A DNA stretch of 64,000 nt, taken from contig NMRA01000049.1 of assembly GCA_002633005.1 (NCBI GenBank), positions 716,321-780,320 of the forward strand. The letters run 5' to 3'. Positions 12,195 through 51,600 of the stretch are shown here, one piece after another (position 1 is the first letter of the stretch; each line of letters starts with the position of its first letter). The DNA is from Phoronis australis (lineage: Eukaryota > Animalia > Phoronida). Below the pieces are notes generated by a model. That model saw only the letters and a program-made list of their open reading frames with translations, was not told the origin of the DNA and did not search any database. Both the position numbers and the translations under genes were made by a program.

Positions 12195-12278
<84 letters not shown>

Positions 12279-30379: not shown

Positions 30380-31110
30380 GGTTCAGTTCTTCAATTTTTC
30401 GCGAAATTGTGTCCGTCTGAAGTTGTTAAATAGAAGTGAATTGAAATCACTATTAATATTGTGAAGAACCCTGTAAGTATAAATATTGGTGTTTTTTGTT
30501 CTAATGTATGAGAGTAACACCCAGTTAAGTAAGTCGATTAAAGAAGAAGACATCAAACAATTCAATACCGACTTAACTGTCAATACCATCAACGTACCAG
30601 ACATTGTTGTGGGCATTAAAATCACCTAGGATTAAAGTGGAGACATCAGAAAAAAGTCTACTGAAAGAAGAGTTGTACTTCCTTCATTCAACGGGGATTT
30701 GAGAAGGAGACCTGTAAAACTCCATTACATAATTTCTTATTATTAACGAATGTGCCTTCCGAACATTTTGGGAGTAGTGTATGAATGTGTTTGTGAACGA
30801 TCTCACGTGGCATGAACATATACAATGAGACCCTTACTCAGGTTGGTGTGACAGGCACTCTTGAATACAAATATCATACAAGAACTTCAGATTGTCGGGT
30901 GTCAAATTGACGGACTCACATATAGCTGCATTTCTATAATTGCCTTTGATTACACTTTGTTTTAACTTCAAAATTTAAGGACTGGAAAAGTTGTTTGCTT
31001 TGATTCTGTTGATATTTGAGAACAAGATGTTGAATGTGCCGGGCTTGGTTGGGCCTGGATATGACTCAATGTCACCACAGCATAAGGGATCTGAAATAGA
31101 AGACCTACCA
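30380..31110 (-). mobile_element. Second 2A-APE LINE relic, related to 17100-17415
   Basis: CCGDIESYPGP..FNILFSNINRIKANNFS, then degenerate APE motifs FYRSPSQ and LGDFNAH. Confidence 0.65.
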
Positions 31111-32409
31111 GTGGCCTTAAAATAGTTAATAATAAATGTCCTGCCACAATATGGGCGGTGCAGCACTGAAAAAAGTGGGGCCTGTATCCTCCTAGCATCC
31201 CATGGTGCACCGCCCATACACCATGGGAGGCGCAGCACGGAAAAGTGGGGGGCTATAGCCCCCACCCAGCCCCCCATGAATGTGCCAACTCTTCCAAACC
31301 CCTGGGATACACAATAACGCGCGGCGATGCAGAACGCCATATCATCATCCGTAATTATCACAGAGCACATAATAAATACGATCGGCGCGATAACCCATCA
31401 AAACATGAGCACTTTAGGGGACAACAAAGCATTGGTAAGGAATATTTTGAGACCGAGTTTTAGTAGTAGAAGGTTCGAATTTCCTTTTTATCCAGTTAGA
31501 CATGCAAAATGCAAGTTTAAAGAGATTCCGTGGAGAGCGCTAACAGTCCACTGACCATGGAGCTACTAGAAAAATAACGTAGTAGATCTTGTAACGTTTC
31601 CAACGCTACAATTTGAATTTCCAATGGAAATCTGGCGTGTGGCACTCCAAAAATTATAACATATAAGGTTGCCAAGGATCAGGAACATCCTATAAGTACG
31701 GACAATGGAGTTTGAATCGGTAGAAATTCAAACTCCATTTGCGTATTCTGGCTAATTGTACATTCTGTGACTATTCCAAAACGTTGATACAACACGTTCT
31801 ACAAGAAAATCGCAAGCACCTGTTTTTGATAAAAGAACCTGAACTACTACACGAGTCCACGGTTTCGAGTCGGACTTACGTAGGGCATGCGCACTAAAGG
31901 TAAAGAACTCGGGGGAAACAATATTGCATCGCGGACTCTACGGGATCTCGACAATGAAATGCACATTTCTCTGAAAATAGGGAGTGAATGGCGAAAACAG
32001 AGTTTCATAATAATTTATGCAATCAAATGGGAATACTGGGAGATTGTTTGGACACAACCTTTACCCTCTGAGCTCGGCTACGTTGCGGAGTGGATGCTGG
32101 GGTTATCCATAATAGTAATATTTAATTGTGATCTAAATACTATTAACACTTCAATTGAAATAATTTCAAGACGATTTTATGCTGTATCGAGGGCTCGCTG
32201 ATAATACCAATATGACAGTGATTGGTCTTGGGGGAAAAGCAACCTGTCTTGCAAATGATCAGGTTTTTCCGAGAGCACACACGGGCGCGAGCGCGCCCAC
32301 ACACACATACATTTATATATATATATATATATATATATGCATATGCATGTACATGCGCATATATATTTATGCTTCCCAATACGTATGAATGAATTTCGGT
32401 TATCGACCG

Positions 32410-32500: not shown

Positions 32501-33022
32501 CTTAACTATAGGTCACGTGATGAGACTAACATACAGGGTGTATGATTCTGACTTAAAACATATCTTGGACATTTCAATTTGTCACTGAGGTAACTGAAAC
32601 ATAATGAGGACGTCATTGGTGACGAACACAAGTGCCTGGCGTATTCCGTGAAAACCTCGATGTAATACATGTACGTCCATCGACACGACTGCGTAATGCA
32701 ATCTTGAGGTCTAAAAGTTTAGGTCATTCGAAAACGAAAGCATTTGCGAATAGACGCAATATCGTCGTTTTAACGAAAATTAGCCAAATGGTGTAATAAC
32801 GTCCCATTAATTGACAAAATGAGTAAGCAGATAGGCTCAAAACATTAAAATAGCTGTGAAAAGATTGAAAATAATACTATTCTTCTGCCATTATACTGCC
32901 AATTATTTTTGGCATAAAATGCGCCAAAATCTGACCAAGTTTGACAAAGTACTGTCGAAGACTGTCCACTTTATCTTGGAAACTACTGTACTCTTTAAAA
33001 TACACTGTATGAAGCGTTGCAT

Positions 33023-36000
33023 ATGGGAACTATCTCTTTAAAAGACGTAATTATTCCAGGTATGAACAGCGATGAAGGTAAGGAGTCTGATCACGGGAGG
33101 GCTTACGATGGTGAAGTCTTCGAAATCAGCCGAGAAGATTGTTCCATGATAGCCGACATTGTGTCACCTTTTGGCTACAGCACAGCAGAAGCATTGGTAT
33201 GTATTGCATATGCAGTACTCATCCGCTACGAAGGTGCAGACAAACCTCCTTCTATTTCATTGGCATTTGGCTCTCCTGGACGAGATCAGAATGATACTGA
33301 CGAATCTTTTAGTTGCGACAAAAAGGCAATCGCCGATGAGGAATATTCAACAGCTCTTTTTCCATGTGATGTCAATAGCTCTATTTCAGACATGCTTTTG
33401 TCCCAGCGTCTCACGTTTGACAAATGGCCTGAAGCGCACTCGAAGTTCAACCGCAGCAGCCCCAGCGCATACATGGCGTTTGACTTTCCACGCGACTTCA
33501 ACCGAAGCAGTCAATCCAACCAGTATGAAGTTAAGCTCAATTTGACCCACCAGTTCAACGGAGGCTACTCCTGCTCAGTACGACAAAGCACAAAGGGCTG
33601 CGGTGACCATGTGACGAGATTTCGAGATCATTTTCTGACACTGCTTTCGCAAGTCCACTGTTCTGAAAATCTTAACCTACTCAGCACACCAATTCAAACG
33701 CAGGAAGAGAAACAATTGATGGCTAAGTATAACGCAACTGACAAGTTCTACGAAAATAGTACATCACTTATTCACGAGCTTTTCGAAGAAAAAGCTAGGC
33801 AACATCCTGACGAAGTCGCTATTTGTTGTGCTGAACAAAGTCTGACTTACAAACAACTAGATGAACAATCGACCAGGCTTAGTCATAAAATACTATGCGC
33901 CATGGGTAATGCGTTTTCAAGTCGTTTAGTTGGTATAAGCGTTGATGCATCAATAGATATGGTGATAGGTTTGTACGCCATCATGAAAGCTGGTTTTGCC
34001 TATGTACCGCTTGATCCAAGCTACCCTGAAGAGCGACTAAGTTACATGATTGAAAACTCCAAAGTAAGTCTTGTAATTGCCAAACAATCAATTGTTGGCC
34101 TACTCAGGAATTGTTGCCAAACGGTGCTTTGCCTTGAGGATGTTTTGGTAGAATCTGCCGAAGAAAGAGTATTTGAAAAACAAATTGTCAATCCCGATGA
34201 CTTGGCTTACGTAATATACACGTCTGGATCCACTGGGAAGCCAAAGGGTGTGATGGTGAGTCACCGAAACGCAGTTAACACTATTCTGGATATCAACGAC
34301 AGGTACTCTGTGGCAGAAAAAGACAAAATACTTTTGGTTGCGTCACTCAGCTTTGATCTATCTGTATATGATATATTTGGTATCCTAGCTGCAGGGGGCA
34401 CACTAGTCATTCCTGTTCCAGAAGTTCGCGGAGTCCCAGACCCCAATTGCTGGTTTGAAACCATGAAGAAGCACAGTGTAACAATCTGGGACTCCGCACC
34501 GGCTGTTCTAAGTATCTTAATGGAATTTATTCTTTCTGAAAATGTTTCACTGCCATTTTCCTTGCGGCTATGCATGCTAAGCGGCGACAGAATACCGCTG
34601 AACCTCCCCACCCAGTTGCAAGATATGGTTCCGGGAATTCAAGTCATGAGCCAGGGAGGTGCAACCGAGGGATCAATATGGTCTATTTATTATCCGATCC
34701 AAAGCGTCGACGATGACTGGACGACCATACCGTATGGCATGCCACTTTCCAATCAAAAATATTACGTTCTAGACGAATTCCTAAATCCAGTACCTACTTT
34801 AGTTATAGGAGAATTGTTCATAGGTGGAACAGGTGTAGCCATGGGATATATAAACAATCCTAAAATTACAGAATACCGATTCTTGCCCAACCCTTTTGTT
34901 GAAGGAGAGCGAATCTATAAAACTGGAGATCTAGGCAGATTACATCCTACAGGTTACATCGAATTCTGTGGGAGAATAGACAACCAAGTTAAAGTACGTG
35001 GTTTTCGTGTTGAGCTGTCTGAAATTGAATCAGCTTTGATTAACCAAGAAGGTGTTGCTGACGCGTTAGTCATGAAGGTCCAGGAAAGGCTTGTCGCTTA
35101 CATCATTTGTGACCAAAATGTTCGTCTTGTCGAAGCCGATCTGCGACAGAAAATTGCTGTTTGTCTTCCGTCATACATGGTCCCTGCATTTTTTGTATTC
35201 ATGCATTCCTTTCCTGTAACTGCTAATGGGAAAGTGGACCGACAGGCACTGTCTGAGGTAAACTTTAGTCAAAAGAAGGACGAGGACACGGACCCTTCTC
35301 TTCCTGAAAAATCCACATTAGCAATCAAACCGTCGTTTACAGATAGGGAATACCTTTTAGCTCAAGTATGGAACGAAACGTTTAATGTTGATTTAGACGA
35401 ACTTTCGCCTTCATCATCTTTCTTTGAGATTGGAGGGGATTCCATCTCTGCTATGACTGTTGTCTCTGCAGTGCGGAAGAAGAATTTTCGGATATCTGTG
35501 CAGCAGGTTTTGGGTCACCCTAGGCTTTGTCAACTTGCTATGGTAGCAAAACCACTTGGGAGTGTTCAAAAGAGCAGGTTCCAGGCGAATGAACCTTTAA
35601 CACCTTATGTTCAACTTACTCCAGCCCAAATTTGGTTTTTTGAACAAGATTTTATAAACCCTCATTTCTGGAATCAGTCGTTTCTTCTTCAACCAAAGAA
35701 AGAAATTAGAGCCTGTCAACTGAAGGTAGCCTTAAATCGTCTGATTTGTCAGCACGAAATGTTAAGATGTACGTACTCTCAAACATCAGATGGTGGTTGG
35801 GTACAGACAATTAACGATATAAAGACCCCGTTCTTTAAAAACAAAACACTAGAGAACTTGGAAATGCTTAACGACGAGTTGGAAAGCTTAAAATCTTCTC
35901 TAAACATACACAAAGGTCCCCTATTGGCAGTTGGGCTGTTTAATGTTGGTGATGTGCAGAAACTTTATGTAACCGTTCACCATCTGGTTGTTGACCTTGT

Positions 36001-39000
36001 TTCATGGCGTATTATCCTCGAAGATCTTGAAAGAATGTATGAAGGACAAGAGACTGAAATGCCGAGTATGTCATTTCAAAAATGGTCATCACAATTAAGG
36101 CAAATAGCCGTGCCCTTAATGCGCGATGAGTGGCCGAAAGAAACCGAAGCCTCACCACTGCCTGTAGATGTGGGAAGTAATCTAATCCCTACGGCTAGCT
36201 CTAGAAAGACAATTGTTACAGTGCTTGATCGCAACGTAACCGCTGGTTTGGTGTCATCTGCAAATACTTCTTTTAAAACCAACACCAATGACTTTTTGAT
36301 CGCATCTCTAATTCTAGCATACAACGAGTCATTTGGGTTGGAGAGTCTTCAAATTGACGTTGAGGCACATGGTCGAGAGCCATGGGATGACTCCGATGAC
36401 ATTTCAAGGACTGTTGGCTGGTTCATGACAATGTTTCCACTGACGCTAGAAATCTGCCAGGGGCCATCAAACGAGAAAACTATGGAAAATACGCTAAAAT
36501 TAGTAAAAGAAAAGATTAGAAATATTCCAAAACATGGAATGCCATTTTGGCTCTTAAAGTTTTTGAAGAATTCAGATGAAACGGAAATTGAAAAGTCAGA
36601 CGTACTTTTTAATTATTATGGCCGACTCGATCAAATTCAAACCAAAAGTACTCTATGGGAATTAGATGATGATTATCCGTGTGGTGAGGATGAGTTTAGC
36701 TCAGATGAAAAGCTGACACACAAGGTTGTCGTTGAATGTAGCCTCAAAGATGAAAAACTCTACATGAAGATGTTTTACTGCACTGATATCCACGAACAAA
36801 AGACCATTGAATCGTGGATGGAGAAATGGAAAGAAAACATAATCAAACTGGTATCGTACTGCGGAAGAGATGACGTCTTTGGCTATACACCATCAGACTT
36901 CCCGTTGCTGAAGCTTTCACAGTTCCATTTAGATGAGCTGCTGTCCACCCGACTTGCACAATTAAACCTAGCGACCGAACAATTATCCGACATGTATCCA
37001 TGTACACCGACGCAAGAGGGTTTTCTGTTTAGACTTTTGCAAGATACCTCCTCTTACGTAGTGCAGAGGTCATGTACCCTCAACGGCTCAGTCGATCAGG
37101 GCAAATTACAAACCTGCGTTTATAAAATAATTTTAAGACATGACATCTTACGAACTCGGTTTATTGCTGACAGATTAAATGGGTGCATGCAGATCGTATG
37201 GAAAACCTTCGAACCCCAATGGACGATTGAAGACTGGTCTGACCTTAAAAGAAGCGAATGTGCTCAAAGAGAGATTGAATATCTACGGCATGATCGACAC
37301 TCGGGGTTCAATTTCACAGAGCCAATGCTAAGGTTTGCACTTTTCAGAACATGCAAAGAGACATACCGTTTCATTATAACTTCTCATCACAGCATAGTGG
37401 ACGGACAAACGTGTTCACTGGTTCTTCAGGAAATATTTATGGCGTACAGTGATGCAGTGCTTCCGGACACACCGGTATTTAAAGAATATGTCAGAGAACT
37501 GATGGACTATAAGTCGTGTAGTTACAAAGCAGAGGGATTTTGGAGAGAAGAACTGAACCAACTACCCGATCGTGGAAACCTTCGTTTCTTGGCCCCAGAG
37601 GTTCCCCAAAAGGGTTATGATGTTATTCACCACTCAGCATTGAACGGAAAGGTTGGTGAAATTCAAAAGTATGCCGAGCGACATGGGATCTCAGTTGCTG
37701 CCATGATCTGTGCATCTTGGGCTTACGTAATCAACAAATATTCGTGTGACCCAAATGACGTCATTTTCGGTTTTGTTGTGTCTGGTCGTGGAACCTCGCA
37801 TATTGAAAACGTTAACAGGTTAGTTGGAGTAACAACAAATACATTGCCCTTCAGAGTAAAGATTCATAACCATCACGTGGCGGAGTGGCTAGACTACGTA
37901 CAGAAAAAGATGGTGGCTATTATTGAACATGAAAAATCATCACTGACAGACATTCAGCAGTGGTGCGCATTGACGCCGGATGACAAACTCTTTGAAACAC
38001 TTGTCTCATTTAATGCCATGAACAGGGAAACGGAGATTTCTCTAAAATCTCATGACATTGAGGTCTGCAATGTCTATGACCATGAATTTACAGAGTACCC
38101 CCTGACTTTAGATATTCTTCAAACAGCTAATGCTATCGAAATTAAAGCTATTTATAACAAAAGTATTATCGACGCGGCAGCAGTTGTCCAAATCCTTAAT
38201 CAGCTAGAAAGAGCCATGTGGTGGATAGCAACTGCGTCAAAGGAAACACGAATAAGCGAGTTTGACATTGTGAGCCCTGAGGAGCATCTGGTGTTAGAAA
38301 ATTTGAATCCAATAGATAACTATAATGCCCAACTCGGGCATTTCAAAGGTGTGCAACACCTATTTGAAAGAATGGTTGAGCTTAATCCAAAAGAGCAGAA
38401 GGCATTAATAATGGACGATGAGTCGCTAACCTATAGAGAACTCAACTCAGCAGCTAATGCTATAGCTATTCATCTCCGATCTCTTGGCCTTTCACGTGGT
38501 GAGAAGGTTGGACTTCTCATTGATCGAGGGATACCCATGGTTGTCGGAATGCTGAGTATCTGGAAGGCTGGAGGCGCCTTTGTTCCTATAGATGCTGCAC
38601 AGCCAATGGATCGTGTGTTGTTTATATTAGAGGACTGTGGATGTCGATTTGTCTTTAACTCCAGTTCCATTGACGCAAAATCGCTACCGCAAAAGCACAC
38701 TTACATTTGTTTAGATAATCACCTTCTTGCTGCGTACAAAAACGAAAATGTGTGTAACCTTGAGTGTGTACATGACGCACGTGACCTTGCATACATGATT
38801 TACACCTCGGGTACAACTGGGCGACCAAAAGGTGCTATGGTTGAACATCGTGGGCTAATCAATTTCTTAATGTATAAGCCTGGAGGTGTTCTCGAAGTGA
38901 CTCCTCAAACAAATGTGATGCAGTACTTTGCTGTCGGATTCGACGGTGCTGTCTTGGAGGTGTGGACAACACTTTGCCATGGTGGATGTCTTTTCATTCC

Positions 39001-42000
39001 TTCTGGTGACTTCACAAAGACTATGAAGATAGTCGACGCTGTTGGAAATACACCTTCTACTCTGGCTATTCTGAACCCTGACGAGTATTCTAACTTAAAA
39101 CTTGTTTTTGCCGGCGGTGAGCCATGTTCCTCCACAATGGTAAACGTATGGGGTAAAAATCGAGTTCTATTAAACGGATATGGACCAACAGAATGTAGCA
39201 TTATGTCCCACAGTGGTCGATTGCAGCCATATAAACGAGTTACAGTTGGAAAGCCTCTACCAAATACCAAAAGTTACATTCTTGACAGTAATCAGCGACC
39301 TGTTCCTCCGAACATGACTGGTGAGCTTTTCATTGGAGGAGTCAATGTTGGAAGAGGTTACCACAATAGACCAGATTTGACAGAGGCTGCTTTCCTTGAA
39401 AATCCCTTCGATGTTGGACGAATTTACAAAACAGGTGATTTGGCAAGATGGTTGGAAAACGGAGAAATTGAAATCATAGGACGAATTGACCATCAAGTCA
39501 AATTACGAGGCAAACGTATCGAACTCGAAGAAGTTAGGAGTGCTATTGAACGTCTTCCGGGTGTCACACAAGCACATGTCCTTGTTCAAGATAAGCAGCA
39601 CATCGTAGCATATGCTCTGACTTCCACTGGAGTCAGCCAAGCCGACCTCCTCTGCTCCTTAAAAAAGAAACTTCCCAACTTCATGGTACCAACAGCAATA
39701 TTTTGCATGAGTAATTTTCCTTTGACAGCAAATAACAAGATTGATCAACGATCACTACCGAGGTTTGAACCCCAAACCACTCATTACATGGGAGCAACCC
39801 CGTCTAATAATCTGGATAAGTTGATTCTTAATTGTTACAGGGATGTCGTTGACCCAGGTTTTAACATGGAAGATGATTTCTTTGAGCTTGGTGGACACTC
39901 CCTTTCAGCAATAAGGTTAAAATCGATGCTTGCAGATAATACAGGCTTAGACGTTTCCATGGTCGATGTAATGAACTTCACCACGCCGTTTGACCTGGCA
40001 GCAGAGTTAAACAACAGAATTTTATTTCCACGAAAGAAAGTACAGTCAGTATCCATCCTACCAAAAACGTGTTCAGTGGAGGGAGACAAGATCATCACAG
40101 CCAAAACGTCCTGTCGGCAAGAGCAAATGTGTTTATTGTATGAACTAATACCGAGTAGTCCAGTGTATAATGTTACTGTAGTTCTTGAATTCCGTGGAAT
40201 CTTGGACGTTGGATTTCTAGAACAATCCATTAAAAGCATAACGACAGTGCATAGTTCGTACAGAACATCTTTTAAGAGGTCAGTTGACAATTCATTTATT
40301 CAAATTGTCACCCCAATTCAAGACTATGAACTGAATTTCAGCTTTTACGATTACGCGGGAGAACAAGGTAGCTGCCAACAAAAGGCACGTGAGCTTTTAT
40401 ACAGAGAAGCCGCAAAACCATTCGATCTTTATTCCGTGCCGTTGGCCAGATTTGTCCTAGTCAAGCTTTCCAACGAAGTTCATCATTTGGGCATATTTAT
40501 GCACCACTCTGTAACTGACGGCGGCTCGCTAAAGATAACCATTGACCACTTAGCAGAATACTATGCTTCCCTAGTGAATAATTGTCAGCCAAACATTCCA
40601 CAGCAGAGATTAAACTACATTGATTACAGCAACTGGGAGAATAAGTTGCTCGAAAGCGGTGAAATTGAAAGACAAATACAGTTTTGGAAAGATAAGTTGG
40701 AAAACGTTCCCAATATATTAGACTTGCCTCTAGACAGAGCACGACCTGCTATTCCAACGTATCAAGGCGAGACTTTGTTCTTTGACATTCCGGACGATGT
40801 CTCAGAAGATTTGCTAAAGTGCTCTCTAGAATGCGGAGGTACACTCTTCACATCGCTTGCAACTGTATACGCATTATTGATTCGTATCTACTGCCAATCT
40901 GATGACGTTGTTGTTGGAGCGTTTTTCTCAGGAAGACACAATCCTGGTGTCGAAAATGTAGTAGGCTACTTTGTGAATACACTTCCTCTTCGAATTCAGT
41001 TTAATCAGCAGGCAACTTTCACATCTTGTTTGACGGATGTAAAGAACTTAATGCTCGAGGTTCTTGATAATCAGGACGTACCTTTTCAGAAAATTCTCGA
41101 GTCCTTGAACGTGCCACGTGACACGTCATATCACCCTATTATTCAAGTTGCTACTGTGCTTCAAGAAGGTATCACAAGCAGACCCTTGGTGGACGGACTT
41201 TCCATGAAAGCACAAGCTTTTGAGCAATTCACAGCAAAATTTGACTTGAATTTAGAATTTGTAAGACATCAAAACGGGAATCTTAGTGGACAGTTTGTTT
41301 TTAACACCGACATTTTCAACCGCTGTACTATACAACGAATGAGTGAACATTTGTTGTATTTGTTTAGTATGTTGACAAAAAGCCGAGACATTCCATTGGC
41401 TAGCCTTGACATGCTACCACCAAGTGAAACTGATCTCATCAGGTCATTCAATACATCTGGGGAATGCTGTAGACTCCACATACACCAACAGTTTGAGAGG
41501 CAAGTGGAATTGGTACCAGACAGCATTGCAGTAGAGCAAATAGATCGACATATAACGTACAGAAGTCTTAACGCCGCTTGCAATAACTTGGCGCGGAAGC
41601 TACGCGCTGCTGGTGTTGTGCCTGACACCGTAGTTGGTCTGATAGGAGAGAGAAATTTGGAGTGCGTTGCTTCCGAGATGGCAATTTTGAAGGCTGGTGG
41701 AGCAATACTATTAATTGAAGCATCAGCTCCTCGAAATCGCATCGACTTGATGTTGGGTGAAACCGATTGTAAAGTGGTTGTAACCACAAAAGGAATAAAA
41801 CTAACTGGACTTCTTGATACATTCCGAGGAGAAATAATCTTGGTTGACGTAGACAAGTATACTACACGTTGTAACGTTGACACCATCGAAGAAAACGACC
41901 ATCAAAATTTGGAAAACGTTGTAAATTCGAGTCACCTGGCATACATAGTCTTCACTTCTGGAACGACTGGTAAACCAAAAGGAGTCATGATTAACCATTG

Positions 42001-45000
42001 GGGATGCCAATGTTTAATTCCTCGGCTATGTGAAGCCTATTCCATTACACATGGCACAAGAATGACGCATTTCTTTAACATAATGTTTGACGGGGCGTAT
42101 CAGGAAGTATTCATGGCTTTGACAAGTGGGGCAACCCTGGTGCAACGAGAAGAAAACTTCTTAAATACTTTAAAAAATGTGGATGTTTCTTTGATGTCCC
42201 CTTCAGTTCTTGCGTCTTTGGACCCTGAAGACTTTCCCAATCTGAAAAAGGTAATTGTAGGTGCCGAAATACTTCCACAGTCTACAGTGGCTAGATGGAA
42301 AGACCACGTGGAGCTTTATAACGAATACGGTCCATCGGAAGTAACTATTATGTGTACCCTTGGGTTAACAAATTTCAACGAAAAGGTGACCATTGGCAAG
42401 CCAATCACTAATTGTACAGTGAATATTTTAGATGGCAATCTAAAGCGTGTTCCCATTGGAGTCAAAGGGACGGTGTACATTGGGGGCAACGGAATTGCAA
42501 GGGGTTATCTCAAACGACCTGACCTAACTAACAAAAAATTCATCAACAACCCTTTCGGCAAAGGAAAACTTTACAATTCTGACGACATAGGTTATTGGAC
42601 TGCAGATGGCCAGATCGTCCTTGCAGGTCGAAGAGATAGACAAATCAAATTACGAGGCTTTCGAATAGAGCTTGATGAGGTTGATCATGCAATGCGAAGT
42701 GAGAAGGGAATTTCAAATTCTGCTTCTGTCGTAAAAAATGACATGCTTGTGGGGTACGTGACGCCTGACATAGGCAATTTGGGAGTACGTGAACTAAAGA
42801 AGAGTCTTCAAGACAAGCTTCCCCACTACATGGTACCGTCAGCGATTGTTGCTCTCTCGAAATTCCCCATGTCAGCGTCGGAGAAAATCGACTACAAACG
42901 TTTGCCTGAACCTTCTTTCATCGAGTCTGAAATACTCACGGCGAAAGAAGGAATTCTCCTTAAAATTTGGAGTGACGTTTTGCAAATTGAGTTATCGAGG
43001 ATTAAGACTAGTGACTCATTCTTTTACTTAGGCGGCGATTCCATTTCGGCAATGAGGGTATTCTCCCTTGGAAGAAAGAGTGGGTTACGCTTTACAGTTC
43101 AACAAGTCTTTCAGTCCAGAAGTCTTTCTCACCTTGCACATGTTGCAAAATATGCTGAGAAAATGAAAGCTGGTAAAAAAGGTGAACAGGTGGAGGTTTC
43201 AGGACATTTGCCATTGACCCCCATTCAAGAATGGTTTTTCGACTTAAACCTTCGCAATCGCAACTGTTTTAATCAATCACTGCTTCTAAAGTCATTGTTA
43301 AAAGTGGACCCAACACACCTTCAGAATGCCATCAATGCACTTGTCAGACATCACGATATTCTGCGCGCTTTCTTCTCGTTTAAACCAGATGGACGTGCAG
43401 CGCAAGAAATCATGTCTGTAAACGATGCACCAATACCGAAATTGATTCTCAAGAGAATTCCTGAAGACAATCTGGAAACTGAGATGACCAGACTTCAAAA
43501 TTCGTTAGATATAACGTCCGGTCCACTCCTCGCTGTTGGTCTGTTTGATATCGAGGGTAATCGACAGTACATATATATCACAATTCATCACTTAGTCGTG
43601 GATCTTGTTTCTTGGCAAATTATCTTAGAAGATCTCGAAACATTATACCGAGGAGATCTTCTCCAGCAGAAAACGTCTTCATTCAAGGAATGGGCAGAGC
43701 TTCTCAAGTCCGACTATTTTTTTTCCTTTGTTCGCGACGACTGGCCAAGTTTAGAACCAAGCAATCCTTTAAAATTGGATTATGTTCCACAGAACATAGA
43801 TAACATCAAAACCGACAGTGTTGAATTCGAACAAACAGAGTTAGACAAAGAAACAACCAGCAAATTACGCAGTCTCAGAGGGACACGTGGACACGACGAT
43901 ACTTCAATTAATGATATTCTTCTGACAGCACTCATGATAGCGTACAATGAATGGACTGGAGAATCAGTGATGTCCATTGAGCAGGAATGGCATGGGAGAG
44001 AGTCTTGGACAGACAGGCTTGATGTGTCTCGTACTGTCGGCTGGTTCACTGCCATGTATCCCGTAACGTTGTCATTGCACAATCACACAAACGGAGTACT
44101 GGATCACCTTGAAGAAACAAAGCGACGAATTCGAAATATTCCTGATCACGGTAGGCTATATGGAGTATTGAAATATCTAAAGAAAGACAATGATCCAAGG
44201 TTTCACCAAAAAGTTGACATTGTATTTAACTACCATGGAAGTTCAACAATGTATTCTAAAGAGAATAGTCTGTGGGAGGTATGCGATATTGGTGCTTACA
44301 CGTTCAAAAATCGTTGTGATTATGAAGAAGTTAGTCACAAGCTCGGAGTTGAATGTTATATTTCTCAAAATTGCCTTCATGCAAATTTTCTGTACAGCAA
44401 AGATCTTCATCGAGCAGAAACCGTTCGGCTAGTTGCGCAATCGTGGAAGAAAGCACTTCAAAATATCGTCAACGCACTTCAGTTGAACTCAAATATTACT
44501 GAAGTACCTTCGGAAAACCGTGGGATCAAATTTAAGACAGTCCAGGATGATTTGAAGAAAGCAAGAATCAGTTTGGATGACGTGGAAGACATTTATGCCT
44601 GTACACCCCTACAAGAGGGGTTGATATTTTCTTTACTCCGAGACAAATCATCTTATTTGGTACAATTATGTTTGACGATAAAAGGAAATCTCGATGTAGA
44701 AAGATTCAAATTGGCATGGAATGATGTGACAAAACGTCATCCCGCTCTTCGAACGAGTTTCGTCATTGATAGTAGAACACATACCTTGATGCAGGTAGTT
44801 AGACGTTATGCCGATCCACCTTGGAAAATCGGGTCGTGGACTGACTCTGCAGAAGCGGAGTCTCGTTTTGTAAACGAAGACAGAGCAAAAGGATTCAACG
44901 CAAATGATTATCTGCTTAGATTTACTTTAATGAAAACATGCCCTTCAAGCTATAAATTTATTTGGACTGTCCACCATTCAGTTGTCGACGGCTGGTCTTC

Positions 45001-46697
45001 CCCACTCGTACTGAGAGACGTCTTTGCGGCTTATCATTCAAACAATCTTTTACCCGCTCCTTCCTTTCGGTTGTTTGTTGAATATTGCCAATCGCGTGAC
45101 ATGTCTGCTGCACAGAGTTTCTGGTCCAAGTATTTGTCCAATCTCGAACCAATGCGAATCATAACTTTGTCCACAATGAAAGAGATTTCTGAATGTGACA
45201 ATCGACACGTGACACGCACATTTTCCACAAGAATGGATGAACTGAAGCAATTCGCCATGAAGAACAATTTAGCAATAACTTCGGTAATGTATGGTGCCTG
45301 GGCGCTAGTTCTGGATAGGTATTGCAGTAGTTATAGGAAGGACGTTGTTGTTGCAGTTGCTATAGCTTCACGAAGTGCCGAAATAGAAGGTATCGAAGAC
45401 ATGGTTGGACTGCTGCTTAACACATTACCACTTCGCATAACTTTCACATCAAATGAAGAAATGTCGCTAGTGGATTGGCTTAAGACCATACAGGATAGTC
45501 AAGCTGCAATAATGGCATATGATTATAGCAGTTTAGCTGACATACGGAAATGGAGCGGTCTTCCAAGAGATCAGTGTTTGCTTGATACCCTGGTCTCATA
45601 CGAGAATTACCCAGCTCTTGATAATGTGAGCAACCAAGAAATAGAATTCTGTGACATTCATGGATATGAAGAGCTTGATTTGCCACTCGGAATCGTTTTC
45701 AGTGACGATGACGAATATTTGACGACTAAAATTATGTACGACGGTAATCACATCAGCAATGAGTTAGCGCTCCAGATATCGGAACATTTGAACAATGCTT
45801 TGAATGAGATACTCTCTTCTGATAACTCACGATCAGTTTCTGATGTCGACATCAGTAAACCATTCGACATTGAACAGACAAGTGTGGCAAGTCGGTTAAT
45901 TGATAATGTGGCATGTTCACTTTATGTTAAGGATCAGTATGGCCGATCCTGTCCTAAAGACGTCATCGGGAAGTTGTTTATACAACACAATGCGACTGAC
46001 GATGAGGTTTACACTGGTGTTCTGGCAACATCACGAATCAATGGCGGCATAGTTGTTCTGGTAGGCAGCGAAGTCGACTCACTACCGGAAGAGCTGGCGG
46101 GGATTGAAGGATTACCAAGCTCTGTTATCTCCAAAAATAATGACGGTGTATTTGTCTTCGCTTCTCAAAAAGATCCCCTCCATTCTTCGCTATTAGAAGA
46201 GATTAAAAGGAAGCTTGAAAAAGTCAATTTACCAATGTTTGTTCTACCAGTTGACTTCGCCGTTGTTACTGGTGATATTCTTAAAGATATGACAGAAGTG
46301 CCCCCAGAAGTCTCACGAGCGGATTCCAAACAGATATGGCAAGGATGTGACTTTTCGGAAACGTTGACAACCAAGGAAATAATGCTTCGGGATATGTGGG
46401 CAAAGGTTCTGAAAATGAACTCAAGCGAGGTCAAACTCGACCATTCCTTCTTCGACCTTGGAGGCACGTCAATCACGGCTATAAGTCTGGTTTCACTTGG
46501 TGAGAAAAGAGGTCTACAGTTTCAATTATCGGACGTAATGCAGCTGCAAACACTTGCAGAAATTGCCTCAGTTGCCGAGTTAAAGGTTGACGAGGGTGAC
46601 CTGTTGGTTTGTTTAAACACTGGCAATGTCGGCGAAGCTCCAGTCGTATACATTCACGCCAGTGACGGTGGTGTATCGTCGTTTTCGTACATCAGTG
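33023..46697 (+). CDS. Multimodular NRPS, exon 1 (C remnant-A1-T1-E1-C-A2-T2-C-A3-T3-E2-C-vestigial A-T4-start of TE)
   Basis: Uninterrupted 4573-codon ORF. A3 motifs YTSGSTGKPKG (~34216), YTSGTTGRPKG (~38801), FTSGTTGKPKG (~41951). Carrier motifs GGDSI (~35432), GGHSL (~39890), GGDSI (~43031), GGTSI (~46460). E motifs HHLVVDLVSW, ExHGRE and SRTVGWF, each twice. C motifs HHSIVDG, HHSVTDG, HHSVVDG. The start is uncertain: first ATG 33023, second ATG 33062 just after a possible acceptor ttattccAG. The exon ends at donor AGTG|GTAAGT. Confidence 0.96.
33760..35250 (+). other. NRPS adenylation domain A1 (Cys-type family)
   Basis: SFDLSVYDIFG, TIWDSAP, LSGDRIP, GGATEGSIWS, YKTGDLGR, NGKVDR. These match the signature of Cys-activating domains from thiazoline-forming NRPSs. 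Confidence 0.85.
35330..36910 (+). other. NRPS T1 plus epimerization domain E1
   Basis: FFEIGGDSI (GGDS type precedes E domains), LTPAQIWF, HHLVVDLVSW, EAHGRE, SRTVGWF, FNYYG, YTPSDFP. Confidence 0.88.
36985..40020 (+). other. NRPS module 2: C (DCL-like), A2, T2
   Basis: MYPCTPTQEG, HHSIVDG, FGFVVSGR; A2 with NGYGPTE and YKTGDLARW; T2 FFELGGHSL. Confidence 0.88.
40100..44490 (+). other. NRPS module 3: C (LCL-like), A3, T3, E2
   Basis: HHSVTDGGS, LDLPLDRARP, VGYFVNTLPLR, QDVPFQ; A3 with NEYGPSE and QIKLRGFRIEL; T3 GGDSI; E2 LTPIQEWF, HHLVVDLVSW, EWHGRE, SRTVGWF. Confidence 0.88.
44580..46590 (+). other. NRPS module 4: C (DCL-like), vestigial A fragment, T4
   Basis: IYACTPLQEG and intact HHSVVDGWS. 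Then only eroded late A motifs (LYVKDQYGRSCPKDVIGKLFI, YTGVLATSRINGG, LPMFVLP) with no A1-A5 core. T4 FFDLGGTSI. Confidence 0.8.
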
Positions 46698-47253
46698 GTA
46701 AGTTCACGTTTGGAAAAATTATATGTGTGGGTTTGTAAAGCCATTGCTGTCGTATTAACTTAGCAGAACTTTGACACAACAAAGTGAGGACAAAATAGCA
46801 CAATTAGTTCTGGTTTCTGCCCAAATCATTATGAAACCCGCGCCTCATCGCCCGTATCACTTTTAGTGGAGTTGTGTTTTTTCATAAACTACATAAATGG
46901 TACAGGATTGGAAACGTGAGGACATTCACATCTTTTATCACCTTTATTGATTAATAGCTAGTTAGCACAGTGAGCCCCCGTCCGGTCGGACGGAACAAAA
47001 GCAACGGCTGCACCGGACCTCTGAAATCAAAATAATATCTCGTCGCCACTCATATTACAGTAGGTGACTTTTTTGGATTATTCGGAAATAAAAATACCGC
47101 ATCACGGCATTGATTATCAAAAAACGGATTTGTTACAGTCGGAGAATTACTATGATTATTATCAATAAGCTTGTTCTTGTTATTATTGTTACTAATATTA
47201 TTCCTTTTTATGTTGTTCTTCTTCTTATTATTATCATCGCTGTTCATTCCTAG
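46698..47253 (+). other. Spliceosomal GT-AG intron (556 bp, phase 1) within the NRPS TE domain
   Basis: GTAAGT donor, pyrimidine-rich tract plus TAG acceptor, and an in-frame stop if unspliced. Splicing restores both frame and a continuous TE fold sequence. Confidence 0.9.
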
Positions 47254-47900
47254 GTCATCTTAAGAAGCACCCTGTGTATGCCTTCCGGTTTCTGGTTGGT
47301 AGCACACCGTTCGAGTCAATTCCTCAACTTGCCTCCCTGTATGTGGAGCGAATGCAACAGTTGGACTTCTTTGACACAGACACAGTCTATACACTGGTTG
47401 GATACTCATCGGGAGCAGCTATCGCCTTTGAAATGGCACTGCTGCTTCAACAGATCAACCGAAGACCGCAAAAGCTTGTTCTTCTAGACGGATGTCCAGA
47501 TTTAAACAGAAACACGTATATGAGAATTATGAAGTGTACGGAAGAACAAATGGCTGGTCATGAGAAATGGCTTCGAGATACGTGGAAACAAAAAGGCCTC
47601 GACGATGATGATGCAAAGGTTGGACTATCGCTCTTCCGAGAAACTGTGAGCGTGTACGCCGCCTACTTCCCTTCGACGATTTATCATGGAGATGTTACAT
47701 TTGCACGTGCCACGGACTTACTAACAGATGGGCCATTAGCGGAAACGCTTGTTGAGATACAAGAGCAAGGGCGCGACTATGGTACTCAACAACTGTGTTC
47801 TAAAACAGTGCGAGTTGTTGACGTTGACGGCGACCATTACACAATGATGAGAGATGAAAAACAGATGATAGCGAAGGCTATTGCCGGAGCATTAGAGTAA
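47254..47900 (+). CDS. NRPS terminal exon: remainder of the type I thioesterase domain
   Basis: Acceptor ttcattccTAG|G at 47251-47253. A phase-1 splice joins HASDGGVSSFSYIS-G-HLKKHPVYAFRF in frame with the 47274 ORF. Contains the nucleophile elbow GYSSG, LVLLDG and the GDHYTM histidine motif; stop TAA ends at 47900. Confidence 0.92.
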
Positions 47901-47911
47901 ATATATGCATG

Positions 47912-47947
<36 letters not shown>

Positions 47948-48294
47948 CTGTAGGTTTTCCATTTGCGGTATTTAATCAAAGACACTAGAAATAATATTGT
48001 AGTTTATAGGTCATAATCACGAGGTCGTCACTTTTCAGACAATAGTTGACAGTAGTTGATTTCAGCAACTAAAGTTATTGGCAATGTAATGTATGAAGAT
48101 GGAAACATTATGTCTAAAAACACTTTACTGGGAGATAAAACGTAAGGGTAGTGATACACAAGCGATGGTGAGTCATAAGTGGTGATTAGCCATATGCTTA
48201 GTTTTATATAAGTGATGATAAGCCATGCATTTGGTATATAAAAGTGGTGTTGAGGAGTATTTAGCTTATCAGTCGTGGTGAGATATATATTTAG

Positions 48295-48325: not shown

Positions 48326-48384
48326 TTATATAGGTAGAGATGAGGAATATATTTAGCTGTATATAAGTTGAGGCATGTATTTGG

Positions 48385-48620
48385 CAATAAGTATACGTGG
48401 TGATGAGCAATATATTTTGCTATATATCAGTAGCGAGCCACATATTTGGCTACTTATACGTAGTAATGAGCCATATATTTGGCTATATGTGTACGTGGTG
48501 ATGAACAATATATTTAGGTATATATCAGTAGCGAGCCACATATTTGGCTACGTATACGTAGTAATGGGACATATATTTGGCTATATGTATACGTGGTGAT
48601 GAACAATGTATTTAGTTATA
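48385..48620. repeat. Minisatellite with 98-bp period built from three ~33-bp related monomers
   Basis: tacgtggtgatga recurs near 48394, 48492 and 48590; catatttggcta-type subunits lie in between. Confidence 0.82.
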
Positions 48621-51600
48621 TACATAAGTGGTTAGGCTATTAGAAAAACAAAGACGTTGTAACACCTGAAGACGACCGGAGAAATGACCGACAGCTTCGC
48701 CAGGCCAATATAGAGGTTGGTGTATGTAGACCAAGAAATTTTAGAAATGGTGTTACTGTATCACCACCTCAAAACGTTTTCAGGAAGTCAAAATTACTTT
48801 GTGCCAACTAGTATTGTTACTGTTCACTTATTGACAAAGATATTTGAAATCAAACGTAGGACGTTTTGGGATTAACTGGTGATGAGTCATATACATGGAT
48901 AAGTACGGATGTGGTGACGATAATATATTAGTGGTAAGGAGTCACAGACAGACAGACAGACACACACACACAAACACACACACACACGCACACACATATA
49001 TAAGTGGTCATGGGTTGCACAGATGCAATAGTGAGTCATATTTGGTGATGAATCGCATATAAGTTGTGGGTACTATAAAGTTAAGAGGCACAGCAATGAA
49101 GTCTTTAGCAAAGGAAGCTCGTTTTGGGCAATGACAAAGCTAATCGACTGAGGTACATGCGGCATATCGTTTAGTTAGTCATTGGTTGTGGAGGAAATAA
49201 ACATATTTGTAGGTGTGGATCAACGGGTTTTATTACAGCCTTTAATTAAAAAAATCGCTATAGCTTTTAATGTATAAGAGCACTCAGTACAAAGTAAAAA
49301 TACAAGATGAACCTACCACCTTGGCAAGTCAGTGAAAATACAGAAAATGAAGGCTAAATGCAACGATTGAGTTGTATAATTATACAGATGGTTACAAAAC
49401 CAACAGCGAAAAACTACATCAGCCCTGAAACGTCATTCATGAAATTTGAGACATCACTTTATCCCACACGCATTCAATAAGTCGAGTGGAATACAACCAT
49501 GTGATACTGCTTTCCATAATGCACTCCTGGGACAACTTTAACAATGCCCTGTGACATGGAAAGTTCAAAAGGTAGGTCAGTGTCGATTCGACATATTCAG
49601 TTCAATCATCAAACTTTCCCAAAATAGTTTAAAGCAATGAAATTGCAGCAGTATAAATAACACTCAGCATGCAGTCAGGTCCCAAACAGAACATTTGGAA
49701 CAAAGCTGTTAATAATATGACACTTCTGGCTCAGTTTTATTTGCTAAATATTATATCGTTTGCAACTTAGGCACCGATTCCTCGAAAGCTACAATGTTAA
49801 ATGTTGTTATTTAATCATTTTCAGGAAATGTCACAAGTTCAATGCACAGTTACCGGTGTTTTCATCTTTGTTATCTCTTTTCAAGTAATAAATGGTGGCA
49901 TTTAAAACTGTTTCTTTTAATAGAAAAGACTTGTAACGTAACGCCCAAGTATATACATGTCGGCCACCTCAACAGTCTGGGTGAATTATTTAAAAACCTG
50001 CCGAAAAAATGAAAGAAAATTAAGAATTCGAAGCGTATGGATAAATACAAAACGTATTTCGACTGGCGTAGATGAAAAATCTCGATCGATAAGCGGAATA
50101 ATGTCTCGTGGGATATTACTTCATGTACGCCACGCTCGGTACGTTTTGTGTGTGCATTCGTATTCGTAACTGTAGTACTTTCTTGTTTTTGATACGGTCC
50201 CCTATTTAGTATTTACATATTCAAGCAGGATAAGCAAAGCACATCGCGAGTAGACACGCAACAAGTCTGTAAATATGTATTAACATGATCTTGACTAAAG
50301 ACACATTTCGAATCACACAGCTTGGGATAGCACGAACATACAGATACATCCGAATTGAGGTACAGAAAAACCCAAACGGCTCAGGGACTTAAGTACACTA
50401 TGCGTGAGTTTAGGCCTATGCTCCTATATCCGAAGTAATGCGTTTTTCCAAAGAAAACATCATATTTGCGTGCTTTACATATAGGCGCATGCGCTTACGC
50501 AGCTGTGAGTCGTTCGTCTATTCACTGTCCATTCTTAGAACCTTTTATTATAATCGTTAGTCCTAATACGCCAACGTCTACCATTTGATAGTGTATAAGT
50601 CACGGTTGACTCGCTTAATTGTCTACAGCATTTCTCCTTGGTTTTGTTCTGGTGTTTTACATATAGGCACGTGCGCCCCATTGCGAGTACAGGCGCAACC
50701 GCATGTATAAGCGTAAGGACCTAGATAATGTAAAAATACATCTTAAAACGTTTCCAAATTCAAAAAAGCCTGCACCAGGGAGAATGCAATCTAAGGACCT
50801 ACGATAGGTGCACGAGATACCCGTTGTCGTTCTTCTGAGAATGCTGTAACACCTGAAGATAGCCGGAGAAATTACCGACCGAAACCTTGTTCCAATGTAA
50901 ATATGACAGAGGATGGTGTAAAGCTCCAAAAACGTTTAGAAATGATAAGATTATACGTGAAACGCTCGGGTAAAATCAAGAAATAAATTTCTAAACTAAT
51001 ATTTAAATTGAGAAAAATTGCGTTATCCATCACAAAATAGTAGACATTGACGAGTATTCCATTAACAGTAACTAGTAAATGAAAAGTACTAAGTTTAGAC
51101 AAAAAGCATAACGGGCTATGAATGGTAGACCTACCCACACAATGCTGTTAATAGTCCTACGGACACATCAATGAAGCTAAAGGAAACAAACGCAAATTCG
51201 GTAACCAGAACGTCCTTCCTAGAATATAAATGCGTGTAGTCAAGGTCCAAGCGCCAGAAATCAAAGCGAGATGCTGTGATGTTCTGTATTATCAGAAACG
51301 GATTTTACTCCAAAGTGACTAGATCGTTGGCCAGTACACAGACAAACTCATACATTGTGTTCGGCTTCAGGCCAAACACACGATGTTCTGGGCGACAGAA
51401 GAAGGTCTTCATTCGCCTCGTTTTCCTGTCTGGTGCCTCCCTGAACAAGAGGTGGTGAGTCAAGTGATCGCTTGGCTCGCATAACGCGAAGTTGTCGTGA
51501 GGACTCGATTGGGACCTCAGGGGTCTCACGCTCCACCGGCTAATTTGAAAAGGCTTTGTCCAGTCACGCGTTGTGGGTCATAAATCGAGATAATGATACC

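Follow-up and report, generated by a model that had tools for sequence, protein, structure and literature searches.

Nonribosomal peptides of invertebrates that carry D residues are usually assigned to microbes, and symbionts are normally given the credit for alternating D/L peptide chemistry in marine invertebrates. Few animal nonribosomal peptide synthetases (NRPSs) have been characterised (PMC11869996). The ACV synthetase of springtails and Plectus is a multimodular animal NRPS with three modules, one terminal epimerisation (E) domain and a thioesterase (TE); it makes a D-residue peptide from Aad, Cys and Val, and beta-lactam genes lie alongside (PMC10531068). The nemamide assembly line of C. 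elegans, PKS-1/NRPS-1, is a PKS hybrid with D residues in its product, one adenylation (A) domain used twice, A domains unlike microbial ones, TE release, no identified epimerase and partners elsewhere in the genome (PMC8363725). Molluscan FmtATR provides a further case of host-encoded NRPS chemistry with introns, in a single module with reductive release (PMC11869996). Outside animals, the bacterial syringomycin synthetase SyrE ends in a C-T-TE module that is loaded in trans by SyrB1, whose gene is adjacent (PMC8949500).

Multimodular NRPSs were called rare in animals in the preliminary description of the present locus, which is somewhat overstated, since NRPS regions from seven animal phyla appear in a screen of 2023 (PMC10531068). 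Its Table S4 places antiSMASH regions in phoronid, springtail, rotifer, echinoderm and mollusc genomes, host-encoded in invertebrate scaffolds. The screen can be compared with our data by description only: in the text at hand it gives no layout, its main tree contains animal sequences only, and neither a fungal link nor a TE of the fatty acid synthase (FAS) type is named (PMC10531068).

Here we describe an intact, intron-containing NRPS gene in a window of 64 kb, by which we mean the whole stretch of DNA that was analysed. The antiSMASH margin is 20 kb on either side. Several of the regions in the 2023 screen measure 52-56 kb, as expected from a 15-kb gene with 20 kb on each side, so the gene described here may already be counted there (PMC10531068). 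It runs on the + strand from an ATG at 33023 to a TAA ending at 47900 (33023-46697 joined to 47254-47900) and encodes 4,773 aa. Its features are as follows, with carrier domains written as T and condensation domains as C.

32665..33022, + strand: likely 5' untranslated region, within an ungapped X4 contig (32665-34258) and contiguous with the coding start
33023..46697, + strand: coding exon 1, 4,558 codons plus one base (sequence)
33023..33772, + strand: C*, remainder of a condensation domain at the N terminus, degenerate and lacking HHxxxDG (own C-domain HMM)
33770..35257, + strand: A1, pocket code DLYDMSQIWK, cysteine-type clade with changed pocket residues (domain search, tree)
35345..35557, + strand: T1 carrier, GGDSI, epimerase-partner type (motif, Pfam, carrier-type scoring)
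35600..36892, + strand: E1 epimerisation domain, HHLVVD, EAHGRE, RTVGWF (motifs, TIGR01720, E clade in tree)
36980..38302, + strand: C2 condensation domain, post-epimerase (DCL) type, HHSIVDG (motif, tree, PRK05691 alignment)
38360..39757, + strand: A2, short form of the fungal clade, with pocket code DGLGFGGIMK (Pfam, motif spacing, tree)
39806..40027, + strand: T2 carrier, GGHSL (motif, Pfam)
40100..41452, + strand: C3 condensation domain, LCL type, HHSVTDG (motif, NCBIfam, tree)
41480..42892, + strand: A3, short form of the fungal clade, with pocket code DGQLIGEIMK and altered A7 (Pfam, TIGR01733, tree)
42944..43156, + strand: T3 carrier, GGDSI, epimerase-partner type (motif, Pfam, carrier-type scoring)
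43190..44497, + strand: E2 epimerisation domain, HHLVVD, EWHGRE, RTVGWF (motifs, E clade in tree)
44570..45877, + strand: C4 condensation domain, DCL type, HHSVVDG (motif, tree, NCBIfam)
45875..46372, + strand: A*, 166-aa A-domain remnant from an A6-like motif onward, lacking the core and the catalytic lysine (own HMM)
46376..46582, + strand: T4 carrier, GGTSI, epimerase-partner score despite the TE downstream (carrier-type scoring)
46595..47897, + strand: thioesterase, interrupted by the intron and carrying the triad S4610-D4637-H4753 (PF00975, PDB search)
46698..47253, + strand: intron, 556 nt, GT-AG, phase 1 (sequence; skipped in X3/X4 contigs, retained in X1/X2 contigs)
47254..47900, + strand: coding exon 2 including the stop codon (sequence, X3 contig)

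The stop-free frame at 32999-46738 comprises 4,579 codons, for which the chance expectation is ~1e-131. A single reading frame of ~4770 aa had been proposed; the length agrees with our 4,773 aa, but the protein is encoded by two exons separated by one intron. The donor is GTAAGT at 46698 and the acceptor TTCCTAG, with its last base at 47253. Other in-frame GT-AG combinations were considered (20 in all), and only 46698/47253 had both GTAAGT and read support. An X4 contig is joined across 46696-47253 with GT..AG, which amounts to exact intron removal, and X3 contig 23, spliced at exactly 46698/47253, joins C4-T4 to the TE; the X3 contig runs 273 bases further past 47895. X3 and X4 come from a single study (samples S2 and S3), and their type label, 'DNA?', was assigned by guess, so that an intron-less DNA copy is a possible alternative to spliced RNA. 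Among the raw reads listed, none crosses the intron.

Pfam, NCBIfam and motif scans recovered the layout C*-A-T-E-C-A-T-C-A-T-E-C-A*-T-TE as it had earlier been written, with three full A domains, four T domains with the phosphopantetheine serine (4/4), three C domains with HHxxxDG and two E domains with HHxxxD and ExHGRE. The catalytic motifs were indeed present, but the claim that all core motifs are there does not extend to the A7 motif of A3, which reads YNSDD instead of the YKTGD of A1 and A2. All three A domains score above the TIGR01733 cut-off (A3 with 328.6 over 317.4) and retain catalytic lysines (K737, K2239 and K3288), whereas for TIGR01720, with a cut-off of 74.2 bits, E1 scores above (80.4) and E2 below (68). 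The C subtypes fit the upstream chirality, with DCL-type C2 and C4 after E domains and an LCL-type C3; the alignment of C2 falls on the post-E stretch of PRK05691. The best single-domain PDB match of A1 is bacillamide BmdB (397 bits), and this similarity is the sole backing for reading the A1 pocket code as one of the cysteine type. Substrate names from the A2 and A3 codes were dropped, as there was no reference code set for comparison.

Neither C* nor A* gave a Pfam hit, and A* gave no NCBIfam hit. With our own HMM, C* matches the C-terminal portion of C domains, scoring 20.4 bits (4.4 for the best of 200 shuffles), and its look-alikes in the Atlas are condensation-domain clusters (score 0.96); A* has a weak A-domain score (6.3 bits, best shuffle 1.3). 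Module 4 has no working A domain, a departure from the rule of one working A per elongation module in linear NRPSs. Its carrier T4 scores 62 bits as an E-partner, 39 as a C-partner and 42 as a TE-partner, implying that the end of the assembly line was replaced. An AlphaFold model of C4-A*-T4 from one sequence has a pLDDT of 33.

Compared with ACV synthetase, the window gene has four modules, two E domains that are both internal, and a last module without a working A domain, and no accompanying gene cluster was seen. An assignment to ACV synthetase was rejected because layout and pocket codes differ and no match listed is so named. A nemamide-type synthetase was likewise discarded, as the protein shows no PKS domain in Pfam or NCBIfam and has two E domains, which are canonical, besides its clear fungal kinship. 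The end module resembles that of SyrE in lacking a working A domain, but it keeps the 166-aa remnant, and no partner gene occurs in the window.

The best BLAST match was fungal for 8/8 A, C and E domains (388 proteins), and in six of the eight it was P0003, an uncharacterised NRPS of 6,237 aa from Basidiobolus meristosporus. The best fungal matches come mostly from Basidiobolus, with 29-47% identity, and belong to early-diverging fungi. A full-length match to an already characterised synthetase, which would have spoken against the preliminary description, was sought and none was found; P0003, the closest relative found, is 34% identical, with 4,160 residues aligned. Its kin in Calcarisporiella, Dimargaritales and chytrids form with Basidiobolus what we call the early-diverging fungal NRPS clade, a group defined from our own data and not a named family, with members from chytrids, Zoopagomycota and Mucoromycota.

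In unrooted trees, in which all fungal and window branches are long, A2 and A3 group with 32 fungal domains and no others (99.8/100), and A1 is sister to the module-1 A domain of Basidiobolus (92/97). C3 is sister to the Basidiobolus LCL domain (SH 95), and E1 falls with the fungal clade at 92. C2 and C4 do so at 89, under a long-branch warning for the placement of C2, while the relatives of E2 in the tree are E domains of bacterial type (SH 96). Moreover, the A2/A3 motif spacing of 125-126, a deletion, is common to 29 fungal and 7 chytrid domains and occurs in 3 of 1,126 others. Within the fungal group the nesting is weak (A2 56.7/73, A3 69.2/86). Like the window gene, P0003 has a short N-terminal region followed by a cysteine-type A-T-E, the run A-T-C(LCL)-A-T-E-C(DCL)-A, stand-alone E domains and the short A-domain form. 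P0003 is longer by one A-T-E module and has a complete fifth A domain, its record stopping in a broken T domain; it lacks a FAS-like TE, and the pocket codes differ. The best reading of these sequence comparisons is that the body is an anciently shared fungal-type assembly line. No product was seen assigned to P0003 in the literature examined. The NRPSs of Basidiobolus have themselves been ascribed to transfer from bacteria (PMC7466969).

The TE (PF00975, E 1.7e-17) contains the only intron of the gene. In the PDB, its exon-2 part matches mammalian FAS with 35-44 bits, against 27 for the best PKS TE and 22 for the best NRPS TE, the FAS hits being presumably from pig and human only; the 34-aa exon-1 part had no PDB hit. 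A bacterial TE used as control gave the reversed rank, with NRPS TEs (92 and 72) above FAS (55). Of 423 C-terminal pieces compared, the best-scoring bacterial TE reached 37 bits, ~6 below FAS (43-44). With mammalian FAS TEs (PDB 2vz8, 4z49, 1xkt) the window TE has in common the Ser-Asp-His triad, the GYS-x-GA elbow and the YHG-x-VT and DY-x5-C-x3-V-x-V-x3-GDH segments; the FAS-like DY-x5-C before the catalytic His was found in 0/60 TE-bearing proteins compared. In contrast, its lid is ~36 aa shorter, and it follows an NRPS carrier and not an ACP. No TE relatives were found in metagenome and prokaryote genome contigs by a scan that senses close relatives only. Among solved structures the TE thus most resembles mammalian FAS, by a modest margin, and it was likely taken from a FAS-type gene of the host.

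As to the identity of that host, 194 open stretches of at least 62 aa lie outside the gene; the scan took in 179 of them and omitted 15 that overlap or adjoin simple repeats. Those above the Pfam cut-off were one THAP fragment (E 2e-11), whose look-alike clusters are animal, and pieces of three frame-broken LINEs, in agreement with the earlier view that other coding relics in the window are decayed. No intact host gene, stand-alone A domain or further NRPS piece was recognised within the 64 kb. For the 40 LINE relatives the organism is known in two cases, both medaka. The 556-nt intron and the 33-unit AC repeat of the window are more animal-like. Fungal or protist flanks, looked for because they would contradict the preliminary description, did not appear; on the strength of the mobile-element relics the host, whose genome is rich in repeats, is likely an invertebrate animal.

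Single X1 contigs on the left flank have a depth of 41-50 and those over the 3' part of the gene one of 43-49, alike and without the sign of a chimeric join that was sought, and one X1 contig bridges 32536-33216, from the flank into the gene start. X1 and X2 may be the source of the window. The microsatellites at 32282-32362 and 47896-47955 are crossed by no listed contig. X3 and X4 have nearly no cover on the single-copy flank at 29635-30968 and 31636-32302, and X8 has nearly none on the gene; stretches lacking cover carry no weight in our conclusions. Over a large share of the 5' two-thirds of the gene, summed X1/X2 depth is about double or more (90% likeness). This is not a copy number and could come from a second allele as well as from a paralogue; there are also signs of paralogues. 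Composition is host-like, with GC3 of 0.40 in the gene and GC of 0.39 in the flanks, and CpG o/e of 0.85 and 0.85-0.88, respectively, while tetranucleotide correlations (gene-flank 0.09-0.21, flank-flank 0.21-0.28) are uninformative.

Raw RNA reads of a second study cover 12/23 gene bins in X5 and 6/23 in X6, at a depth of 0.2-1.6; in 16/18 covered bins the first mates map to the minus strand. A third RNA run, X7, had no read over the gene. The 33 listed X4 variants comprise 15 synonymous, 18 non-synonymous and no nonsense changes, with a pN/pS of 0.34 (p 0.002, uncorrected; single contigs, 20 further table rows outside the count, transition bias uncorrected). This synonymous bias supports the selection that had been read from the intact frame. 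Together with the spliced gene and the animal flank relics, it supports a host-encoded pathway for a predicted D-amino-acid peptide.

Based on the domain order, the predicted product is a D-L-D-(L) tri- or tetrapeptide. A1 would charge T1 with a residue that is cysteine-like or otherwise small and polar, and E1 would convert it to the D form; C2 would condense it with an L residue on T2, and C3 would add a third residue, which E2 would turn into D. In the next condensation, C4 would attach the D-L-D tripeptide to an L residue, the fourth, carried on T4. With no working A domain in its module, T4 would depend for loading on a second use of A3 or on the A domain of a paralogue. FAS thioesterases release by hydrolysis, and the TE would most likely do so here, giving a linear D-L-D-L peptide. 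Addition of a fourth residue is our tentative choice for the last step; a relay of the tripeptide is a doubtful alternative, a free amine acceptor is quite unlikely, and any other outcome is improbable. It is also conceivable, if unlikely, that module 4 adds nothing, C4 handing the tripeptide on to an empty T4, or to a free amine, before release by the TE or by C4. The missing core and lysine of A* and the lack of another A domain in the window favour this, and a relay carrier may be useful with E2 standing between T3 and the TE. Nevertheless, C4 retains HHSVVDG and its DCL character, end modules loaded in trans are known, as in SyrE/SyrB1 (PMC8949500), and the signs of paralogues suggest possible suppliers of an A domain. 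As for the TE, it might be a diverged NRPS/PKS thioesterase of the donor gene, its FAS likeness due to chance or convergence and its intron gained later, so that no chimera exists. We find this doubtful: the short lid, the small distance between the bacterial and FAS scores and the many truncated fungal records, whose ends are unseen, are in its favour, but the match order reversed in the control, the motif absent from all 60 compared proteins, the E-partner type of T4 and, in our reading, the other domains in which complete fungal relatives end argue against it.

How the assembly line came to its host allows more than one account. That no fungus-to-animal transfer took place, the gene being an old opisthokont inheritance lost widely or a separate uptake from one unsampled bacterial or protist source, is plausible without being favoured, given the 29-47% identity, the lack of firm nesting inside one fungal lineage and the breadth of the clade. 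On the other hand, module order and the affinities of A1, C3 and E1 lead to one Basidiobolus-like gene, and no animal or protist member was among the top matches listed in three large searches, a weak absence, as such searches return top hits only. The host could instead be a large-genome early-diverging fungus or a protist with a native NRPS; with the nearest NRPS relatives fungal, no conserved host gene in the window and 38 of 40 LINE relatives lacking an organism name, this deserves mention, but it is improbable in view of the THAP look-alikes, the medaka LINEs, the FAS-like TE, the intron and the AC repeat. Finally, the junctions lack a spanning long read and RNA depth is low and, in X7, zero, yet an artefactual assembly join to microbial DNA, or a recent insertion decaying without function, is very improbable, considering a spliceosomal intron removed in two runs, the composition, the contig depth, the synonymous bias and relatives of at most 34% identity over the length. 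To our main reading, that is, an intact, spliced four-module NRPS of a likely invertebrate host, with an early-fungal-related body, a host FAS-type TE and a short D-peptide product, we give a probability of roughly 0.6. Its history may have been the shortening of a P0003-like line, module 4 losing its A core and E domain and gaining the TE. A fuller scenario, possible but tentative, is that an animal took the whole epimerase-bearing line from an early-diverging fungal lineage, shortened it, capped it with its own FAS TE and multiplied it to a small family that makes alternating D/L peptides.

Such a gene would recall the arthropod HGT-chimeras, in which foreign and host parts occur in one reading frame (PMC13389597); the main text of that paper, in the parts available, mentions no NRPS, thioesterase or fatty acid synthase. 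In the window gene the non-metazoan interval is tree-supported and the presumed metazoan one supported by similarity only, with one spliced contig across C4-T4 and TE. In the literature covered, from which subscription journals are mostly absent, we found no paper on a Phoronis NRPS and no animal NRPS of such layout, fungal clade or TE type. New with respect to the preliminary description are the fungal kinship of the body, the FAS-like thioesterase and the loss of the A core in a last module with an E-partner carrier.

By analogy only, the peptide may serve in chemical defence or signalling. Since the gene is nearly intron-free and expressed, with readable modules, it offers a direct way to ask whether such peptides are made by an animal, and which ones; expression of a long gene in a fungal host has a precedent in the 20-kb calA (PMC9893682). 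The finding would connect the NRPSs of animals with a fungal clade that has been little studied and make this 14-kb gene a candidate for fungus-animal transfer. If true, it would mean that a FAS thioesterase was recruited as a peptide release enzyme in an animal, and a natural NRPS with a FAS-type thioesterase behind an A-less module would bear on NRPS engineering.

An ORF scan of the window showed two frames free of stops, one of 4,579 codons at 32999-46738 and another of 234 codons at 47196-47900. Removal of a phase-1 intron, whose donor is GTAAGT at 46698 and whose acceptor TTCCTAG ends at 47253, joins them into an NRPS of 4,773 aa. The preliminary description had seen a reading frame of ~4770 aa, which proves to be made of two exons; its domain order was recovered by Pfam, NCBIfam and motif scans as C*-A1-T1-E1-C2-A2-T2-C3-A3-T3-E2-C4-A*-T4-TE, in which C* scores as a C-domain tail with 20.4 bits and A* weakly, with 6.3 bits, as what is left of an A domain, neither score being reached in 200 shuffles. 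Its statement that all core motifs are present stands for HHxxxDG in all three C domains (C2, C3 and C4), HHxxxD and ExHGRE in both E1 and E2, the carrier serine in 4/4 T domains, the A10 lysine in A1-A3 and the TE triad S4610-D4637-H4753, but not for motif A7 of A3, which reads an atypical YNSDD. The C subtypes agree with the E domains: in PRK05691, the stretch matched by C2 and C4 is the C domain that follows an epimerase, and C3 aligns at an LCL position.

Between 88% and 97% of the gene's words were present in each of four sequencing runs, all from one study, two of which may be the window's own source. The intron is retained in contigs of runs X1 and X2, and contigs of two other samples (X3 and X4, whose label "DNA?" is a guess) join precisely across it; RNA is the simplest reading of these joined contigs, an intron-less copy being the alternative. 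A second study supplied raw RNA reads, sampled to 18-19% of each run; in X5, X6 and X7 they covered 12, 6 and 0 of the 23 gene bins, at depths of 0.2-1.6, with read orientation mostly as for sense RNA if the libraries, of unrecorded strandedness, were stranded. The earlier claim of selection agrees with the coding variants of X4: among the 33 that were listed (the table had 20 further rows), 15 were synonymous, 18 non-synonymous and none nonsense (pN/pS 0.34, p 0.002, transition bias uncorrected). Depth in single X1 contigs was alike in the left flank (41-50) and the 3' part of the gene (43-49), and one X1 contig bridges 32536-33216; none of the contigs listed crosses the microsatellites on either side of the gene. 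Moreover, GC3 (0.40 vs 0.39) and CpG o/e (0.85 vs 0.85-0.88) are close to flank values, so the gene's composition agrees with its surroundings. Overall, the gene is very probably real, host-encoded and transcribed.

The surrounding DNA carries the following features.

Mobile and repeated elements in the window
1678-2905, minus strand: broken LINE (Pfam scan)
4924-9601 and 10973-13469: long inverted repeat, arms ~4.9-6.6 kb and 7.9-9.6 kb, pieces 71-96% complementary
6192-6488, minus strand: THAP fragment, borne by the long inverted repeat
11147-11386 and 11694-11933: exact 240-nt direct duplicate, copies 547 nt apart
20013-22146, plus strand: broken LINE, preserving parts of an endonuclease and a reverse transcriptase; identity to relatives 35-51%
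48329-48632: 98-bp tandem repeat, 2.6 copies, 91% alike, 430 nt beyond the stop codon
59768-62065, minus strand: broken LINE with zf-RVT domain

In the 179 of 194 open stretches elsewhere that were scanned by Pfam, only LINE pieces and the THAP fragment passed the cut-off, and the LINEs are frame-broken, much as had been described for the other coding relics. The inverted repeat with its THAP fragment resembles a foldback or P-superfamily element, and a third, diverged copy lies further downstream; the LINE at 59768-62065 we take to be L1/Tx1-like. The 240-nt duplicate is either a recent duplication or an assembly artefact. High-copy short repeats at 28460-28940 and 31151-31265, the latter with hairpin-like joints, occur in many RNA reads of X5-X7. 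Clusters resembling the THAP fragment were all eukaryotic, most commonly Cnidaria or Arthropoda, with taxa given for few members; among 40 sequences related to the LINE at 20013-22146, two carried an organism name, both medaka, and ten LINE cluster look-ups gave no further names. Long AC repeats, the length of the intron (556 nt) and the TE likeness described below add to these relatives in making an animal host likely.

The nearest relatives found for the synthetase are fungal. Word searches, in which 1,327 long and 7,998 shorter candidates were scored, gave at most 34% identity over the best alignment among the matches listed, which leaves the gene apart from any full-length known match there. 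When E1 was searched against 1.84 billion representatives, the top two were NRPSs of Tieghemiomyces (P0017) and Basidiobolus meristosporus (P0003), and among 388 NRPS proteins a fungal one was the best match for every A, C and E domain, eight in total: P0003 came first for six of them and shared first place with Tieghemiomyces for C2, while A3 was closest to Calcarisporiella. P0003 is built as N-A-T-E-C-A-T-E-C-A-T-C-A-T-E-C-A; it differs by one more A-T-E module, and without its second module it has the order of our NRPS. An unrooted ML tree was built from 61 A domains under LG+F+G4, with five fungal proteins omitted and with the top nine proteins per query, some unnamed, as non-fungal rows. 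In it, A2 and A3 clustered exclusively with 32 fungal domains (99.8/100), and A1 was sister to the first A of P0003 (92/97) within a cysteine-type group; a FastTree of 104 A rows was concordant. Support separate from the tree comes from the spacing between motifs A3 and A5, which is 125-126 in window domains A2 and A3, 123-127 in 29 named-fungus domains, 125-126 in seven domains of two chytrids, and at most 128 in just three of the 1,126 remaining domains; Benniella (136-138) and B. ranarum (132) lack the short form. In a C/E FastTree, C3 was sister to P0003 (95), E1 fell with Basidiobolus and Calcarisporiella (92), as did C2/C4 (89, with a long-branch warning), and E2 was placed among bacterial-type E domains (96). 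By these unrooted trees A2 and A3 appear to be kin to fungal A domains, whichever way a transfer may have gone. The short A form is common to NRPSs of chytrids (Polyrhizophydium, Irineochytrium), Calcarisporiella, Basidiobolus and Dimargaritales, suggesting that these may form one old fungal NRPS clade. Of the chytrid and Calcarisporiella proteins concerned (P0366, P0375, P0402, P0435 and P0443), three finish, by eye, in a hydrolase-like domain unlike the usual TE.

The TE has other affinities. For its exon 2 the ten best PDB rows were all mammalian FAS, with 35-44 bits, PKS TEs reaching 27 bits and NRPS TEs 22 or less, whereas a bacterial NRPS TE used as control scored higher with NRPS TEs (92 and 72 bits) than with FAS (55). 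A FAS-like DY-x5-C ahead of the catalytic histidine is absent from 60/60 other TE-bearing proteins, and NCBIfam gave a weak Pks13 match only. Speaking against a FAS origin, the best of 423 C-terminal pieces reached 37 bits (31 as whole protein), and the lid is ~36 aa shorter than that of FAS. None of 12 fungal relatives ended in this TE type when inspected by eye, several records being cut off. The gene's sole intron lies within the TE, which is consistent with a captured host piece, and passages of PMC10764717 describe a hydrolytic TE in all animal FASs. Judged by sequence, a FAS-type ancestry is somewhat more likely than not. T4 scored 62 bits as an E-partner carrier vs 39 as a C-partner and 42 as a TE-partner, so that module 4 probably began as A-T-E and has since lost its A core and E.

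NRPSs follow collinearity, by which modules 1-3 would add D-X1, L-X2 and D-X3, followed by a fourth step at C4-T4. A3 or a paralogue would load T4 with a fourth, L residue, and hydrolysis by the TE would free a linear D-L-D-L peptide. The main rival has the tripeptide relayed instead of a fourth residue added. Precedents are the A-less end module of syringomycin (in part of PMC8949500) and the repeated use of a single A domain in nemamide (in part of PMC8363725). The pocket codes are DLYDMSQIWK (A1), DGLGFGGIMK (A2) and DGQLIGEIMK (A3). A1 groups with cysteine-type domains, its best single-domain PDB match being BmdB, with pocket residues altered from the P0003 code DLYNFSLIWK; the A3 code is akin to a chytrid one (DAQSLGDIM), and the substrates of A2 and A3 are uncallable. 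A contig break common to 4/4 runs (at 45545-45561, within 45532-45574), an X1 genomic contig that aligns to both sides of the intron (46690-47258) with unknown letters between, and a 79-nt, 91% match in run X8 to the E1 core (35970-36048) are hints that the organism carries further, related NRPSs, although a diverged allele could be behind some of them.

Animal NRPSs are reported from seven phyla, unexplained phoronid ones included, in passages of PMC10531068, and ours may be among the regions counted there. It proved to be neither an ACV synthetase nor the nemamide PKS-1/NRPS-1, and is unlike molluscan FmtATR as described in part of PMC11869996. The passages searched of a rotifer NRPS paper (PMC11258130) mention no epimerisation, thioesterase or Basidiobolus; parts of PMC7466969 attribute Basidiobolus NRPSs to bacterial transfer, and PMC13389597 documents foreign-host gene fusions in arthropods, with no NRPS case in the main text consulted. 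In the literature searched, we found no description of an animal NRPS with this layout, a fungal link or this TE type. The preliminary observation is confirmed and its reading supported, now extended by the fungal kinship and TE likeness. A tentative reading, to which we give a probability of about 0.35, is that the gene encodes an assembly line of fungal origin which was capped by a thioesterase from the host's FAS and makes alternating D/L peptides. If true, an animal would be making alternating D/L peptides on a line taken from fungi and closed by a thioesterase of its own FAS.
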